DNA from: Promethearchaeota archaeon
GTDB taxonomy: Archaea > Asgardarchaeota > Hermodarchaeia > Hermodarchaeales > Hermodarchaeaceae
DNA length: 12,157 nt
NCBI GenBank assembly: GCA_048939625.1
Contig: JBHLPH010000040.1
Coordinates: 1 to 12,157 of the forward strand
Direction: 5' to 3'
Shown here: positions 992-6,601 of the stretch, piece after piece
Layout of the letters: each line of letters begins with the position of its first letter
How positions within the stretch are numbered: position 1 is the stretch's first letter
The notes under the pieces: model-generated
Seen by the model: the letters and a program-made list of their open reading frames with translations, nothing else
Database searches by the model: none
Told to the model about the DNA's origin: nothing
Position numbers and translations under genes: made by a program

Positions 992-1039
992 CAATAAATT
1001 AAAGACCCCCCTTTGTTGTTCACATTTGAGGGAAGACAA

Positions 1040-1759
1040 TTGATTATTGAGGCAATTATCGCCTGGTTACATGCCATTGATGCATGGATTGATAGCATCA
1101 TATTGCTCCTTATTTCCTGGGTTCAAGCCCTAGGTCCACTTGGCGTCTTCATCGGCGTGATGATTGAGACGTTTATCGCCCCGCTTCCATCACCACTTGT
1201 ACCCATGGCGGCAGGATTTTTCTTAACTTTGGGATTAGACCCCATTTCACAAATATTGGTTATTCTTTTCAGCGTAATGTTCGTTGGAGCTCTTGCCGCT
1301 ACCATTGGGTCGTTTTTCGGTTATGGAATTGCCTACTTTGGTGGGTATCCTATCATCGAAAGATATGGTAAATATCTGGGAACATCCATTGAAGAAATCG
1401 AGTACATGCGCAAAAACATGGAAAAATCTTCACGCGACGAAATTTACCTCTTCACCGCACGGGCTGTGCCTATCATCCCGCTTTCGGTTGTCTCCCTTCT
1501 TTATGGGGCGATTCGGGCAAACACCAAAAGATTTGCGCTTATTACATTCCTAGGCGCCTTGCCGCGATATTTGGCGTTAGGGCTATTAGGATGGATAATT
1601 GGCGTAGGGTTCACATCTGCAGTACAGATGATTGATTTTTTCGAAACCTTGATTCTTGTGCTCCTCATCATCTTCTTAGTGGTCTTCATCGTTTACAGAA
1701 TAATTATTCGTCGTCGTGCACGACAGGCACAAATTATACCTACTAAAGAAGATGCCTAG
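1040..1759 (+). CDS. DedA/VTT family membrane protein
   Basis: Motifs IETFIAPLPSPLV, ATIGSFFGYGIAYFGG, ARAVPIIP...S...G and F...TFLGALPR, with several hydrophobic helices and a basic C-terminus. TTG 1040 follows GAGGG; 1013 is the alternative start. Confidence 0.9.
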   Translation: MIIEAIIAWLHAIDAWIDSIILLLISWVQALGPLGVFIGVMIETFIAPLPSPLVPMAAGFFLTLGLDPISQILVILFSVMFVGALAATIGSFFGYGIAYFGGYPIIERYGKYLGTSIEEIEYMRKNMEKSSRDEIYLFTARAVPIIPLSVVSLLYGAIRANTKRFALITFLGALPRYLALGLLGWIIGVGFTSAVQMIDFFETLILVLLIIFLVVFIVYRIIIRRRARQAQIIPTKEDA

Positions 1760-2049
1760 GATTCCGTGTGAGGGTCACCTACAACTGCAGGACGCAATTC
1801 AAAGAAAAAGAGCACCTTACACCCCTGTTCTTGAAGATCCGCTTGGAGAGCAGCAGCACGACCCTTAGCATCATGAATCGAGTCGTAAAGTGGCGAAACA
1901 CAAATTGGCATGGTTTCACCTGGTGGAGTAAGACAGCTGAAATCCTCCGGAACTTTCGCCGGTGGAGGGAGTCGGGAGGAGACGCGGAACTTCCCATTAA
2001 GGAGGCTAAGCCATATTTCGGGATATTTACACTCTGTCATGTTAGCCAC
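1756..2049 (-). CDS. Hypothetical protein, about 95 aa
   Basis: Fills the gap between DedA and rnhB. Its stop overlaps the DedA stop in a shared CTAG (1756-1759) and the composition is protein-like. No recognised family; the start could be 2049 or 2040. Confidence 0.55.
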   Translation of the reverse strand: MANMTECKYPEIWLSLLNGKFRVSSRLPPPAKVPEDFSCLTPPGETMPICVSPLYDSIHDAKGRAAALQADLQEQGCKVLFFFELRPAVVGDPHTES

Positions 2050-2126
2050 ACAGATGCAAACTCAGTAAGAACTAATAAGTCTGAGCAGTTGTTAATGGTT
2101 TCGGAAGTATCCTAGTTCCCAAGCTG

Positions 2127-2789
2127 GTGTTGGATTTGACGCAATTAATAGCTGGTATAGATGAAGCTGGTCGGGGTCCAGTCATTGGGCCTCTTGTGAT
2201 TGCAGGTGTAGTGATTACTCCTTCTCAGGAGGCGGCCTTTCTTGAGTGGGGAGTACGTGACTCGAAGCAATTAAGTCCCCGGCGTCGTGAAACCCTTGCT
2301 CATCATATTCGACAAGTGGCGACCAAAGTAGAGGTCCTGGAAATCAGTGCAAAAAAAATCGATTCTGAACGCCAGAAGAAGAGCCTCAACGCCTTGGAGG
2401 TCGATTGGATGGCACAAGTATTGAACCGACTTCGTTGGGACGTGGCTTATGTCGATGCTTCGGATGTCAATGCGGATCGTTATGGTAGAATGATTACTGC
2501 CCAGTTGAAAAATCCCAAGAAGCTAATTAGTGAACACAAAGCTGATTCGGCATATCCCATTGTCGCTGCAGCCTCCATTATAGCAAAAGTTCGACGTGAC
2601 CAACGAATTCGAGAATTCCATGAGCAGTACGGAGACTTTGGGAGTGGGTATCCTAACGATCCCAAAACTCGCCGCTTCCTCACTAAATGGATTAAAACGA
2701 ATAATTCGTACCCAGATATTGTACGGACAAGTTGGGAAACGGCACGAGATATTCTCGCAGCAAATCGCCAGCGAACTCTTCAAGATTAA
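2127..2789 (+). CDS. rnhB: Ribonuclease HII
   Basis: GIDEAGRGPVIGPLV, GVRDSKQL, YVDA, EHKAD, VAAASIIAKVRRD, DFGSGYPNDPKT, VRTSWET. Confidence 0.97.
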   Translation: MLDLTQLIAGIDEAGRGPVIGPLVIAGVVITPSQEAAFLEWGVRDSKQLSPRRRETLAHHIRQVATKVEVLEISAKKIDSERQKKSLNALEVDWMAQVLNRLRWDVAYVDASDVNADRYGRMITAQLKNPKKLISEHKADSAYPIVAAASIIAKVRRDQRIREFHEQYGDFGSGYPNDPKTRRFLTKWIKTNNSYPDIVRTSWETARDILAANRQRTLQD

Positions 2790-2809: not shown

Positions 2810-4354
2810 CTAAGACTCTTCTTTTTCAGCTTCTTTCTTCTTTTCCTTCTTTTTTTCTTTCTTCTTCTTTTGTTTCTCTTCTTCCTTCCGTTTTTGTTCC
2901 TCTTCCTTCAGGCGCTTTTCTTCTTCCTTCCGTTTTTGTTCCTCTTCCTTCAGGCGCTTTTTCTCTTCTTCCTTCGCCTGTTTTTCCGCCTCTTTGCGTT
3001 GTTTTTCTTCCTCTTTCCTTCGCTTCTTTTCTTCCTCTTTGCGAAGCTTCTCCTCTTCCTTCCGCTTCTTTTCTTCCTCTTTCTGAATACGCGTAGCCTC
3101 TTTTTCGTCTTCCTCTGTTAATTCTGCGGTATCGGGTGCTTCAGCCTCTGTGTATTCAGGAGGTGGTGTCATTTCGGCTTCCATTTCCGGTAGCTCTTCT
3201 TCACCTTCTTCTTTCTTGCGTTTCTTGCGTTCTTTCATCTTTTCACGCATACGCATATACGTCTCGCTAAGCAGCTCTAAATGGCGTTTCGCGATATCTG
3301 GGTGAATATCCTTCGATTCGAGGCGTTCCTGAATACGAAGCACTAAAAACTCGGGGAAGAAGGCTTCAAAATGCACATCCGCTGTCAACATAATCAACGG
3401 ATCATCCTTACCTGATACTTCAACAGAATCGGAGCCCATCTTCGTTATCACTTGAGCTTGTTCTAGCCGGCGCATGACATTATCCAAAGAAGCTTCTTTC
3501 TCCACAACATTTGTTAATTCAGATTTGTGTGCTATTTTTCTGCGTAACGTCTTTGTCACATCGTAGATATCGGGGTCAAGGAGCAGTTGACCAATCATCA
3601 TGGTATCTTCTTCGGTCCACTGATATTCTTCAAAGAAGCTTTTCACTCGGTTCTCGTACTCATTGTACTGTTGTTTGTTCAATCCACCACTCTTTGCGAG
3701 TTTCAGTGATTGTTCCGGTGGAAACCGAGCACCCAACAAGTCATTCACTAAAAAGACACAGTTATCGGACACGGCGTTAATCCAATCTTCTTCCACCAAG
3801 CCACTCCGAAGTAGCGGCAACGTAACAAGTCCTAAATCAGGATAGTGCTTCCCAGTTTGGAGTTCTAGCCATTCTCGCAACTCCTCTGCCGGAATACCAC
3901 CCCGAGCCAGCTTATGCATGAGTAACCGAGTTTCCTGATCCACGAAGACTTTGGCAAGCCGCTGTTCCACTGATAGCTCCACCATCCGCTTCAGCTTCTC
4001 AAACACTTCACCCAGATACTCAACAAACTCTGGTTCCCCAATATTCTCCACAACCTCCCCTGATGCAAGCGTCAACCCTTCCTCATACGCACGGGGTTCC
4101 TCTTCTAAATCCATAAACAACATAATACAAAACTGATCACGACCCCGTAAAATCCCTGTATAATAACTTGAAACCGCGAGGTTCGTACCCTCAAGGGTCA
4201 TCGTGAGAAAACCTGCTTCGGGTTTACCCATGGCGTGAGCGGTAAATACCCGGAGCATATCATCTTCAGTGACATCCAAGTTTCGCGGGTAGACACCAAC
4301 AACACGAAGCCCAACCTTGTCGTCCCACCTCGCGATTGATAAACCTTTTGGCAT
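2810..4354 (-). CDS. uDENN/longin-like N-terminal domain + two winged-helix-like repeats + E/K/R-rich helical tail (514 aa)
   Basis: The N-terminus MPKGLSIARWDDKVGLRVVGVYP fits the uDENN-type [FW]DxxxGxxxxxxYP pattern. An internal repeat spans about aa 134-215 and 255-340, and a charged tail spans about aa 414-514. RBS GGGAGG lies upstream of ATG 4354. Confidence 0.75.
   Translation of the reverse strand: MPKGLSIARWDDKVGLRVVGVYPRNLDVTEDDMLRVFTAHAMGKPEAGFLTMTLEGTNLAVSSYYTGILRGRDQFCIMLFMDLEEEPRAYEEGLTLASGEVVENIGEPEFVEYLGEVFEKLKRMVELSVEQRLAKVFVDQETRLLMHKLARGGIPAEELREWLELQTGKHYPDLGLVTLPLLRSGLVEEDWINAVSDNCVFLVNDLLGARFPPEQSLKLAKSGGLNKQQYNEYENRVKSFFEEYQWTEEDTMMIGQLLLDPDIYDVTKTLRRKIAHKSELTNVVEKEASLDNVMRRLEQAQVITKMGSDSVEVSGKDDPLIMLTADVHFEAFFPEFLVLRIQERLESKDIHPDIAKRHLELLSETYMRMREKMKERKKRKKEEGEEELPEMEAEMTPPPEYTEAEAPDTAELTEEDEKEATRIQKEEEKKRKEEEKLRKEEEKKRRKEEEKQRKEAEKQAKEEEKKRLKEEEQKRKEEEKRLKEEEQKRKEEEKQKKKKEKKKEKKKEAEKEES
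2877..2960. repeat. Exact 42-bp tandem duplication (2 copies) in the charged-tail coding region
   Basis: tcttcttccttccgtttttgttcctcttccttcaggcgcttt occurs at 2877-2918 and 2919-2960, encoding KRLKEEEQKRKEEE twice on the minus strand. Confidence 0.92.
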
Positions 4355-4541: not shown

Positions 4542-5411
4542 CTAATCGGTTGTGGCTTCGGCGACTGCACCGAGGATAATTTTGTAGAGGACTTCGCGGT
4601 AACGGGGATCAATGGCGACGAGACCATATGCTTGGACGCCTAGGATGCGTTGGACGAGTTTGGGGGCGAGAGCACCAGGGAGATCCTGTTTGTTGCCGAT
4701 GGCCCAGACGATGGAAGAGGGCGAGTTTTTGCGGACAATTTCAAGGATGTCGCGGGTTTCGAGTACGTTTTTTAGAGTAGAGTCGGTGACGAGGAGGACG
4801 GCGTCAGCATTACGTAGATAGTAGTTCCAGAGGGAGCGAAAACGGTCCTGACCAGCAAAGTCCCAGACGGCGAGTTCGTAGGGACCAAAGCGGACACCTT
4901 GCAGAGTTTCGATGTCGACAGCAATTGTGGGGTAGTAGTCGCCGGGTATGCTGTCGGCTGTGAGGAGTTTGAGCATGGTAGATTTACCAACGCCACCTTG
5001 CCCTAGGAGGCAGATTTTGAGCATGGTTACGATGACGTTGTCGAGTTCGGAAGCAAAGCCTTTGAAGCCTTCGCCGAGGGGAACTGGTTTCTGGATATAT
5101 GCGTCGATTTCGTGCCCGAATTTGCTGATGAGGAGTTCCCTGGCTTTTTTGAGTGTTGTTTTGATTTTTTCGTCTTCGTCATTCATGTCGACGGCGAAGA
5201 CGAGGAGAAGGTGGGTACCTGCATCAGCATAGATGAATTTGACGTTTTTAACGTGAATGGGTAAGTCGACTTGGCTGCCAAGTTCGGATTCAAAGTGTTT
5301 GTATGTGGCGAGGAATTCTTGGCGTTCTTCGGCACTGATGTCGACGGCCCAGTATTGACGATGAAAGGCAAGGCGTCCGTCACGAGTCATAAGAAAGACG
5401 TTGTGAATCAT
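4542..5411 (-). CDS. Longin domain fused to an Arf-like (Ras-superfamily) small GTPase (289 aa)
   Basis: aa 1-~128 (MIHNVFLMTRDGRLAFHRQY...KFIY...LLLVFAVD) has the adaptin sigma/mu- or SRX-type longin pattern. G1 GQGGVGKST (aa 137-145), G2 YPTI, G3 WDFAGQDRFRSLWNYY, G4 NKQDLPGA, atypical G5 region GLVAID. Confidence 0.92.
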   Translation of the reverse strand: MIHNVFLMTRDGRLAFHRQYWAVDISAEERQEFLATYKHFESELGSQVDLPIHVKNVKFIYADAGTHLLLVFAVDMNDEDEKIKTTLKKARELLISKFGHEIDAYIQKPVPLGEGFKGFASELDNVIVTMLKICLLGQGGVGKSTMLKLLTADSIPGDYYPTIAVDIETLQGVRFGPYELAVWDFAGQDRFRSLWNYYLRNADAVLLVTDSTLKNVLETRDILEIVRKNSPSSIVWAIGNKQDLPGALAPKLVQRILGVQAYGLVAIDPRYREVLYKIILGAVAEATTD

Positions 5412-5432: not shown

Positions 5433-6449
5433 TTATTCTGCGCGGGTGTGCGCCTTTTTCTGTGCAGTTGTGCGTCTTCGATGTGTATGATTGGGAAGCT
5501 TTTTTTCGTCGGAGCTGAGCAATGTTCGTAGTTCTCGGTAATTTCGACGTAATGATGTACGTGAACAACCTACAAGTTCGATTATATCGTTTTCGGGTAT
5601 TGATTCTCCGGTTTGTTTTGCACTATAATAAGCAATAGATGCAGCGATGATGGGTCGGGGATGACCTTGGAAGAGCCCTTCTTGGTTCACATATTCAACA
5701 ATATTGTGGGCGTATTCCTCGGTTTCGTGTTCCACTTCGAGAATAGCAAAGAGGCGATCCAGGATGGCGTGAACCGGTTCACCCCACGATCCGGGTTTTT
5801 GGTCTTTGAATTTTTGACGTTCGTTATCGTAGTCTTCGAGGATTCGTTGAATCCCCACCCGTATTAGTTGACGGGCATTTGCTAACTGAATTTGGCGTTG
5901 ACGGCGAATATATCGAGGGCACTGTGGGTAGCCTGGCATATCATAAATGGTGAGATAGCATTGCTTCTTAACAACGCGACAAAAAGAGGTTAATTCGCTG
6001 TTTTTGATTGGGCGTTCATACATGTAGGGGCACAGTGATTGATCGCGGGACCCACCACGGCGTTCGATATTCCGATAACTATCGGAGAGGATTTGGCGGT
6101 ACCGTCGTTTTCGGTTCGCCGGATTGCCCGCAGTTTTGATGATTCGTTGCAAAGTTTTGTACAGAATTTCTTTATAAGCCGAAGCTTCTTCCTCGGCAGT
6201 GAGTAGAACGGTGAGACAAACATCATCGTCAGCACCTTCGCGTTTTGCACGTGTGCAAGTAACAGCAGCCCGTTCTTTAACTTCTTTAGTGGGAAAGACT
6301 TGAAAAGAGGTGCCATTACCTTCGGGAGCACAACTATAATACATCAGAGAAAGCTCGCTTTCGTCGAGGTCCAAAGAGGCAGGATATTTGGATAGAATCT
6401 TGAGTCCTTCTTTGGTGTCCCACTGACTGACGACAAGCCCCCGAGGGAT
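5433..6449 (-). CDS. uDENN/longin-like + Cys4 motif + TFB/TFIIB C-terminal cyclin-fold fusion (338 aa from proposed ATC start; ORF track starts at TTG 6374)
   Basis: The frame is open upstream of 6374 as IPRGLVVSQWDTKEGLKILSKYPAS, which aligns with the N-terminus of 2810-4354. It contains C-x16-C-x6-C-x12-C. The C-terminal ILDRLFAILEV...A.NIVEYV..EGLFQGHPRPIIAASIAYYSAKQTGESIPENDIIELVGCSRTSLRRNYREL matches the second TFB cyclin repeat. Confidence 0.82.
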   Translation of the reverse strand: MPRGLVVSQWDTKEGLKILSKYPASLDLDESELSLMYYSCAPEGNGTSFQVFPTKEVKERAAVTCTRAKREGADDDVCLTVLLTAEEEASAYKEILYKTLQRIIKTAGNPANRKRRYRQILSDSYRNIERRGGSRDQSLCPYMYERPIKNSELTSFCRVVKKQCYLTIYDMPGYPQCPRYIRRQRQIQLANARQLIRVGIQRILEDYDNERQKFKDQKPGSWGEPVHAILDRLFAILEVEHETEEYAHNIVEYVNQEGLFQGHPRPIIAASIAYYSAKQTGESIPENDIIELVGCSRTSLRRNYRELRTLLSSDEKKLPNHTHRRRTTAQKKAHTRAE

Positions 6450-6455
6450 AATAAG

Positions 6456-6463
6456 TCACCTTC
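6456..6463 (-). promoter_or_regulatory. Shine-Dalgarno GAAGGTGA upstream of the proposed ATC start
   Basis: The minus strand reads GAAGGTGA-CTTATT-ATC-CCT. The same GGTGA precedes the starts at 7768 (-) and 11751 (+). Confidence 0.65.
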
Positions 6464-6530
6464 CAGCAAAGCGTAGGATATGATTTTTGAAATCTGTCAC
6501 CTGGCTTCAATCAACGTTTAGGAGGGCGGC

Positions 6531-6546
6531 AGAAAAAGGTTTTTGC
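6531..6546 (-). promoter_or_regulatory. Possible BRE/TATA-like promoter of the longin gene cluster
   Basis: The minus strand reads GCAAAAACCTTTTTCT (an A-run then a T-run) about 80-95 nt upstream of 6449. Confidence 0.3.
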
Positions 6547-6601
6547 ACGCACATAAGGGCAGTAAATTCATTCCGAGATACTGAACACATGTAACAGCTG
6601 A

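Follow-up and report, generated by a model that had tools for sequence, protein, structure and literature searches.

Eukaryotic longin GAP pairs, namely, NPRL2-NPRL3 (of GATOR1), FLCN-FNIP, and C9orf72-SMCR8, act on small GTPases of the Arf/Rag kind and join a longin domain to a C-terminal DENN or winged-helix part. In C9orf72, residues W33-D34 and the G38-P39 "GP motif," which lie before strand 2, are essential, and stand-alone Asgard longins of the FLCN/SMCR8 type are discussed in the same study (PMC12290439). Asgard genomes code for many small GTPases and many longin/roadblock proteins, and it is hard to pair the one with the other because they are rarely encoded together, the GTPase genes as a rule sharing no operon with genes for longin or roadblock proteins (Tran et al., PMC10933270).

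The second set of relatives that concerns us is archaeal TFB and its eukaryotic counterpart TFIIB, which comprise two cyclin repeats together with a ribbon, a B-reader, and a B-linker. In crystal structures of TFB/TFIIB-TBP-DNA complexes, the stirrup of TBP is contacted mainly by repeat 1. The helix-turn-helix (HTH) of TFB repeat 2 reads the BRE, and the N-terminal zinc ribbon recruits RNA polymerase (PMC13502027).

The window analyzed here, i.e., the whole stretch of DNA under study (12,157 bp), is an entire contig of a 2.3-Mb genome that is 88% complete; its features are collected in Table 1. It encodes a protein (the target protein) that runs from the N to the C terminus through a longin domain, four cysteines, a long basic helix, a single five-helix cyclin fold, and a basic tail. 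The first-pass annotation had read it as a uDENN/longin-like domain fused to a Cys4 motif and to a single TFB/TFIIB cyclin repeat, the C-terminal one with its HTH. Homology, the AF2 fold, and the homologues bear this out, and the architecture of uDENN/FLCN-type longin, Cys4 module, and lone TFB repeat is confirmed. A literature search combining longin, TFIIB, and archaea found no paper. We propose, at a probability of roughly 45%, that the target protein is a GTPase-coupled DNA-binding regulator, namely, a subunit of a longin/GTPase module with a TFB-derived HTH as its output. We also present the difference in charge from true TFBs, a conservation profile by domain, the range of the third-gene family, and the codon-level evidence on the start.

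Table 1. Features of the target gene, its upstream region, and its two downstream neighbors in the window
Feature	Position	Strand	Residues	Basis or remark
Three conserved intergenic blocks upstream	6491..6585 (6567-6585, 6529-6548, 6491-6514)	(-)		Conservation
Shine-Dalgarno-like GGAAGGTGA	6456..6464	(-)		Its TGA is the in-frame stop closing the frame upstream
Probable noncanonical start, ATC	6447..6449	(-)		6 nt after GGTGA
Target open reading frame	5433..6449	(-)	338 aa	338 codons, uninterrupted
Longin domain, FLCN/NPRL/C9orf72 kind	6057..6449	(-)	aa 1-131	AF2 topology, Foldseek, VIA-align, Atlas
Cys4 module, C-x16-C-x6-C-x12-C, probably metal binding	5919..6056	(-)	aa 132-177	C140, C157, C164, C177
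Long, strongly basic helix	5805..5918	(-)	aa 178-215	Modeled helix aa 178-213; block pLDDT 68-86
Single cyclin fold, TFB/TFIIB repeat 2 homologue	5505..5804	(-)	aa 216-315	Sequence, profile, and fold matches
HTH of the cyclin fold	5520-5606	(-)	aa 282-310	
Disordered basic C-terminal tail and stop codon	5433..5504	(-)	aa 316-338	Low pLDDT, charge
Next gene: N-terminal longin-like domain and Arf-like small GTPase	4542..5411	(-)	289 aa	Pfam, gene order
Third gene: paralogous longin protein	2810..4354	(-)	514 aa	Paralogy, conservation, gene order

Layout, lineage range, and start of the fusion protein

The AF2 model of the target protein, made from an alignment of 25 homologues (mean pLDDT, 74.9), has a longin topology at aa 1 to 131, a poorly modeled stretch at aa 132 to 177, a helix at aa 178 to 213, and a five-helix bundle at aa 223 to 313. 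The same architecture is found in 42 homologues, some of which are named "cyclin family protein" at NCBI. A member is present in every one of the 18 further genomes sampled from the GTDB family to which the window belongs (two genera; Hermodarchaeota by record titles), and in none of the 381 other Asgard genomes among the 400 sampled in the phylum at an E value of 1e-10 or better. A pattern scan of one genome per species in 185,579 species recovered 17 loci, in records titled Hermodarchaeota (including Candidatus Hermodarchaeum yapensis) or in loosely labeled MAGs. An assembly chimera, which the first-pass annotation had named among the outcomes that would refute its reading, is ruled out by the 42 homologues of the same layout, their presence in 18 of 18 genomes, and the 17 loci of the species scan. 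Thus, on the genome sample and the species-wide scan, the fusion is real, old within the Hermodarchaeota lineage, and confined to it. Conservation differs along the protein: the mean frequency of the major residue is 0.86 in helix 3 and the HTH, 0.78 in the Cys4 module, 0.77 in the basic helix, and 0.64 over the bulk of the longin domain. Constraint is strongest in the C-terminal module, which is therefore functional, its TFB-derived part being clearly under selection for function.

Twenty aligned loci bear on the start codon. No in-frame ATG, GTG, or TTG lies upstream of the conserved N terminus in any of them except one (L026). GGTG is invariant in all 20 upstream regions, and codon -3 is TGA in 15 loci, the other 5 having TGT. 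Six different amino acids are specified at codon -1 and seven at codon -2, whereas codon 0, which precedes P-R-G-L, is ATC in 15 loci and ATT in the other 5. From codon 0 on, the residues are conserved with synonymous variation, one leucine position being specified by six different codons. Judged by this codon pattern, the target gene appears to start at the conserved ATC/ATT codon. Two other candidates were rejected. The TTG at 6374, called as the start in the list of open reading frames, is a TTG in just 8 of the 20 loci and would delete longin strands 1 and 2; an out-of-frame GTG within the Shine-Dalgarno opens a frame that closes within about 30 codons here and within 3 codons elsewhere.

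The three upstream blocks are conserved across the g1 genus and at one locus designated L005, and may represent a promoter, operator, or leader. Each is found once in the 2.3-Mb genome, and since they are thus unique to the target locus, no regulon motif is evident. Rfam returned no family for the upstream region. By RNAalifold, ACCUUUU in one of the upstream blocks may pair with GGAAGGU of the Shine-Dalgarno, at only -2.3 kcal/mol and with no covariation.

Longin domain, Cys4 module, and TFB-type cyclin fold

The modeled longin domain consists of two strands, a helix, three strands, and two helices, in that order. Foldseek matched it to a chain of the FLCN-FNIP2 complex (6ulg_N; E = 1.2e-4), a chain of the GATOR1 complex (9v0j_A), the Lst4 longin, and a Lokiarchaeota longin (8yqg). 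The last of these is the best single structural match in VIA-align (8yqg_B; Z = 13.6; rmsd, 3.3; 131 residues), and NPRL of GATOR1 (8fw5_B) reached a Z of 12.0. A shape search of the ESM Atlas matched models of NPR2, NPRL3, C9orf72, SMCR8, and uDENN and also stand-alone Asgard longins of 154 to 164 aa (TM, 0.70, normalized by the hit). The loop joining strands 1 and 2 carries a W-D-x3-G-L motif (here W-D-T-K-E-G-L), in which the W-D-x3-G spacing equals that of W33-D34...G38 in C9orf72. The motif glycine is invariant and followed by leucine in every family member, so that the C9orf72 proline is replaced by leucine and the GP motif proper is absent from the target longin.

The region that follows is less readily placed. 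Its four cysteines are invariant in both alignments (25 and 16 homologues), as are 17 of the 46 positions of the module in the 25-sequence alignment, and the module is predicted to be, and probably is, metal binding. AF2 confidence is low here (pLDDT, 43 to 64). The cysteine spacing is unlike that of the TFB zinc ribbon (C-x2-C...C-x2-C; PF08271), and hhalign comparison of aa 128 to 225 with the N termini of the genome's six TFBs (ribbon, reader, and linker) gave no similarity (Prob, 0.3); a 24-column resemblance of the Cys4-helix region to the end of TFB repeat 1 (Prob, 0.4) is not significant. No relatives of the module or of the helix region after it were recovered from Pfam, a PDB profile search, the Atlas, or a library of 1.84 billion proteins. 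The basic helix has a pI of 11.25 and a net charge of +6 in the target protein (+4 to +11 across the family), with 14 of its 38 positions invariant in the 25-sequence alignment. The tail, at the other end of the cyclin fold, has a pI of 12 and a net charge of +7. Among 16 homologues, 14 have a tail charge of +4 to +9 and the two g2 members one of -2; in most family members the tail ends in -RAE. Block pLDDT values over aa 311 to 338 are 62, 41, and 43, and aa 322 to 338 lie below 50.

The TFB-like region had been placed by the first-pass annotation at aa 225 to 312 (nt 5514 to 5777), which is correct. The NCBIfam TFB model NF001658 matches at model positions 225 to 306 of 312, i.e., at repeat 2, and the Pfam TFIIB repeat (PF00382) matches aa 231 to 307 with an E value of 0.0035, at a score (17.8 bits) that does not reach the gathering score of 23.6. 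The Pyrococcus TFB core (1ais_B) matches the target sequence at E = 0.0024. A phmmer search of 1.84 billion representatives recovered three representatives of the family and then 17 others (E = 5e-7 to 7e-4), all 17 of them confined to target aa 209 to 324; the 10 that were scanned are all TFIIB-repeat proteins. Compared with the six TFBs of the same genome, the family profile gives a Prob of 96.6 (E = 5.7e-10) for repeat 2 and a Prob of 92.9 (E = 3.7e-7) for repeat 1. In structure, the cyclin fold (model aa 223 to 313) superimposes on 1ais_B with a Z of 12.2 (VIA-align; rmsd, 1.7; 92 residues). The HTH segment C-S-R-T-S-L-R-R-N-Y-R-E-L aligns residue by residue with V-T-E-V-T-V-R-N-R-Y-K-E-L of TFB repeat 2, and R301, invariant in the family, falls at the arginine of the TFB V-R-N. 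On these sequence, profile, and fold matches, the cyclin fold is homologous to the TFB/TFIIB repeats, with repeat 2 fitting better than repeat 1. With cyclins, the target protein has only the fold in common; its sequence relatives are TFIIB repeats instead.

The rest of TFB is missing from the protein. Pfam gives no match to Zn_Ribbon_TF (PF08271), hhalign finds nothing of the B-reader or B-linker of the genome's six TFBs, and a second cyclin repeat is absent by Pfam, the AF2 model, and profile comparison, in agreement with the first-pass statement that zinc ribbon, B-reader, and first cyclin repeat are lacking. With neither zinc ribbon nor reader, the target protein cannot be a basal or alternative initiation factor, and the earlier proposal of an alternative-specificity factor fails for want of the ribbon that recruits RNA polymerase.

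Also proposed in the first pass was mimicry of TFB: the target protein would act as a general repressor, either by sequestering TBP or by competing for TBP-TATA-BRE complexes with canonical TFB. The repeat that was retained is indeed the BRE-reading one (PMC13502027). The genome, moreover, offers one TBP and six true TFBs, each with two cyclin repeats, for such a protein to compete with. However, repeat 1, the main contact of the TBP stirrup, is absent. The recognition helix, as the first pass had remarked, differs from that of TFB at several positions (C-S-R-T-S-L-R-R-N versus V-T-E-V-T-V-R-N-R), and the canonical BRE is therefore not an obvious target. The net charge of the cyclin domain is -8 (-8 to +4 across the family, mostly -1 to -6), whereas the true TFB repeats of the same genome carry 0 to +11, and so acidic a body argues against TFB-like broad contact with DNA. 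Since the domain is acidic and the main TBP-contacting repeat is missing, neither a TBP sequestrator nor a basal factor is likely, and we hold a mimic of this kind to be highly improbable.

This acidity, which sets the domain apart from true TFB repeats, would also suit a cyclin fold that has lost DNA binding and serves solely as a protein-protein scaffold, in a subunit of a GAP/GEF complex with no link to transcription, where it would substitute for the DENN or winged-helix domains that hold the eukaryotic longin pairs together. Cyclin folds are common protein-protein modules; many solved complexes in which they hold another protein match the target equally well (CDK-cyclin complexes; Z = 10 to 11.6 in VIA-align), and the Atlas alignments with NPR2/NPRL3 models cover 200 to 223 residues and so extend into the C-terminal half (TM, 0.43 to 0.47). 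Yet no part of the protein is more conserved than the recognition helix, which is invariant, and the HTH lies between a helix and a tail that are both strongly basic, a pattern more typical of nucleic acid binding. We consider such a scaffold somewhat unlikely. The exposure in the model of S296, T298, R301, R302, and N303, all invariant, together with the basic flanks, instead points to nucleic acid binding, and sequence-specific binding of DNA by the target protein through the conserved HTH is a plausible prediction.

The conserved longin/GTPase gene trio

The context of the gene was underplayed in the first-pass annotation: the target is the first gene of a conserved three-gene longin/Arf-like GTPase cluster. 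The product of the second gene matches the Pfam Roc, Arf, and Ras families (E = 1e-18 to 5e-21) and, at aa 1 to 94, weakly Clat_adaptor_s; its nearest solved relatives are Arf1/Arf2 (E = 2.5e-18). Thirteen loci have long flanks, and all 13 keep the order of target, longin-GTPase, and paralogous longin gene; in each of them the GTPase gene either follows the target after 17 to 22 nt or overlaps it by 4 nt. The third-gene product ranges from 430 to 534 aa across loci; here it consists of a core of 380 aa, which is conserved, and a helical tail rich in K and E. Neither it nor six distant relatives belong to any family in Pfam, a PDB profile search found nothing for it, and its AF2 model (pLDDT, 47.7) is unusable because the alignment is shallow.

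The N terminus of the 514-aa protein is paralogous to the target longin (hhalign Prob, 97.6; E = 4.7e-12). In the hairpin between its strands 4 and 5, R70 is invariant and R72 nearly so; the aligned R70 of the target varies (R/K/Q/L), and the R67 of the target is at least 90% conserved. Because R70 is invariant in the one and varies in the other, the 514-aa paralogue would be the stronger candidate for the catalytic role and the target protein for that of a noncatalytic partner. A complex prediction for the GTPase with the longin parts of the 514-aa protein (aa 1 to 140) and of the target (aa 1 to 135) gave no verdict (score, 0.13; mark, 0.32) and is evidence neither way.

Of the 400 Asgard genomes sampled, 300 contain the 380-aa core family, frequently with more than one copy. 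Among six loci inspected in other Asgard families, two have the third-gene relative near a full-length longin-GTPase relative, which is its immediate neighbor at one locus and lies 1.5 kb downstream of it at the second; at one of the six, a 168-aa stand-alone paralogous longin adjoins the third-gene relative. Because the third-gene family is widespread and occurs elsewhere near the same GTPase type, the pairing of longin and GTPase is probably the older state, and Hermodarchaeota would have added to it a partner with a Cys4-TFB module.

A wider block (RNase HII, VTT, OB-fold, and DNA ligase) is likewise syntenic in the family, and the gene order may therefore partly reflect general synteny within one family. 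The target protein could then be a stand-alone transcription regulator that uses its longin domain only for dimerization or ligand sensing, its adjacency to unrelated GTPase genes being inherited. Such an account draws on the fact that all loci lie in a single GTDB family with the larger syntenic block and on the general separation of Asgard GTPases from longin/roadblock genes (PMC10933270). We nonetheless judge it improbable, given that the gap or overlap to the GTPase gene is kept at 52 to 95% protein identity, that longin domains occur in the products of all three genes (two of them paralogous), and that third-gene relatives stand near the same type of GTPase in other Asgard families.

Proposed role and comparison with known systems

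The GTPase operon and the FLCN/NPRL-type longin lead us to tie the target protein to the neighboring GTPase, whether as controlled by it or as controlling it. Domain composition, homology, conservation, gene order, and lineage range are observed; from them we infer that the protein contacts others, binds metal and DNA, and may affect transcription. In the reading that we favor, that of a GTPase-coupled DNA-binding regulator, the target protein would be a lineage-specific subunit of a longin/Arf-like-GTPase signaling module. Its longin domain would most likely dock on the longin-GTPase, the 514-aa paralogue, or both, as the NPRL2-NPRL3, FLCN-FNIP, and C9orf72-SMCR8 pairs dock on their GTPases. 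The C-terminal half, with its Cys4 knot, basic helix, TFB repeat-2-derived fold, and basic tail, would form the output or targeting part and would most likely bind nucleic acid, probably specific DNA via the conserved HTH helix. The target protein would be a dedicated GTPase-coupled regulator and not a basal initiation factor, and a putative link from the GTPase to gene control at this locus is plausible. The points against this reading are the acidic cyclin domain, the frequent use of cyclin folds for protein-protein contact, the Pfam score below gathering, the wider synteny, and the restriction of the upstream blocks to this locus. In a stronger form, the Arf-like GTPase would directly control a promoter-binding protein, its nucleotide state, set by the paralogous longin pair, gating DNA binding by the HTH module. 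We regard this stronger form as unlikely; if true, it would make the GTPase-gated HTH a prokaryotic one-step analogue of the eukaryotic FLCN/GATOR-Rag route to transcription.

The locus presents a fixed trio of an Arf-like GTPase and two longins of the FLCN/NPRL type, one of which carries what looks like an output domain from the basal transcription machinery. With recombinant proteins, the trio makes it testable whether Asgard FLCN/NPRL-type longins are GAPs on a defined GTPase and what such a GTPase switch controls in a cell without organelles. It also shows that one repeat of TFB can be put to use apart from the initiation factor. Since the family is confined to one GTDB family, its bearing is on the biology of Hermodarchaeota more than on eukaryogenesis in general.

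Compared with the eukaryotic longin GAP pairs, the locus is alike in encoding two paralogous longin proteins with a small GTPase of the Arf/Rag kind, and the longin folds of NPRL2-NPRL3, FLCN-FNIP, and C9orf72-SMCR8 are among the best structural matches of the target N terminus. It differs in having the Cys4 module, helix, and TFB-type cyclin fold where those pairs have their DENN or winged-helix part, and the arginine aligned to the invariant R70 of the paralogue is not invariant in the target. The Asgard FLCN/SMCR8-type longins and the Lokiarchaeota Roadblock-Longin (8yqg) either stand alone or are joined to a roadblock or GTPase domain, and in the literature searched none is reported with a TFB repeat. 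With repeat 2 of archaeal TFB and eukaryotic TFIIB, the target shares the five-helix fold and the terminal HTH, in an alignment that ends in ...R-x-x-Y-[KR]-E-L. In contrast to their two repeats, ribbon, B-reader, and B-linker, it has one repeat and none of the other elements, and where true TFB repeats are basic, its cyclin domain is acidic and fused to a longin. The truncated TFB paralogue TFB3 of Sulfolobus is likewise derived from TFB, keeps part of the factor, and is a regulator rather than a basal factor. Its truncation is the opposite one: TFB3 keeps the N-terminal ribbon and has lost the DNA-binding core, whereas the target protein keeps one repeat of that core and is, in addition, fused to foreign domains.

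Start codon and upstream region of the fusion gene

As judged from its codon-level pattern, coding of the gene for the fusion protein (longin domain, Cys4 motif, and single TFB repeat) probably begins exactly at a conserved ATC/ATT codon. The conserved GGTGA element, which reads GGAAGGTGA in the window, is situated 6 nt ahead of this codon, and its TGA constitutes an in-frame stop at 15 of the 20 loci. The intergenic blocks retained across the genus are TTCAGTATCTCGGAATGAA, GTGCAAAAACCTTTTTCTGC, and a 24-nt leader block, each of which occurs only once in the genome. An inverted repeat, TTCA-N11-TGAA, is embedded in the first of these; pairing between the second and the fusion gene's Shine-Dalgarno sequence is possible, with weak energy and without covariation. 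At the other end of the protein, the C-terminal [TS]-R-A-E peptide is missing from members of the second genus carrying the fusion.

Features of the fusion gene, its flanks, and the neighboring longin protein
Feature	Position	Strand	Remarks
Three intergenic blocks	6491-6585	-	Sense on - strand; conserved throughout genus
Start-codon region of fusion gene	6447-6464	-	Non-canonical ATC/ATT codon and preceding GGTGA, both conserved
C-terminal [TS]-R-A-E of fusion protein	5436-5447	-	Common to most family members
K/E-rich tail of 514-aa protein, aa 415-513	2813-3112	-	KEEEKRLKEEEK-like repeats
Further Arf-like GTPase gene, 347 aa	L006:4803-5846	+	Directly upstream of fusion gene; also L033-L035

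Upstream GTPase gene and wider synteny

The 347-aa Arf-like GTPase gene of the second genus is additional to the others and lies immediately 5' of the fusion gene. The codons at the end of this GTPase gene (…E-K-Y-V-G-T-A) are similar to a non-coding block, TTCAGTATCTCGG, conserved in the first genus, as though a remnant had been retained. Outside the three-gene cluster, RNase HII, a small ORF, a VTT-domain protein, an OB-fold Ssb-like protein, and DNA ligase form a block that is syntenic across the family (window 1013-2789; compared loci L003, L005, and L006).

The 514-aa longin protein and the canonical TFBs

The 380-aa core of the 514-aa protein encoded by the third gene of the cluster (window 2810-4354, - strand) belongs to a family with no Pfam model, found in 300 of the 400 sampled Asgard genomes, often in 2 to 4 or more copies. 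At some of the loci L051-L056, its gene is near a longin-GTPase gene or adjoins a 168-aa stand-alone longin. The long K/E-rich tail is predicted to form one continuous helix (block pLDDT, 72 to 86; aa 421 to 510) and differs in length among genomes, with one genus having only a short remnant. Six full two-repeat TFB paralogues (contigs C9, C38, C12, C3, C45, and C34), two of them side by side on C9, and one TBP are encoded in the window's own genome (G000).
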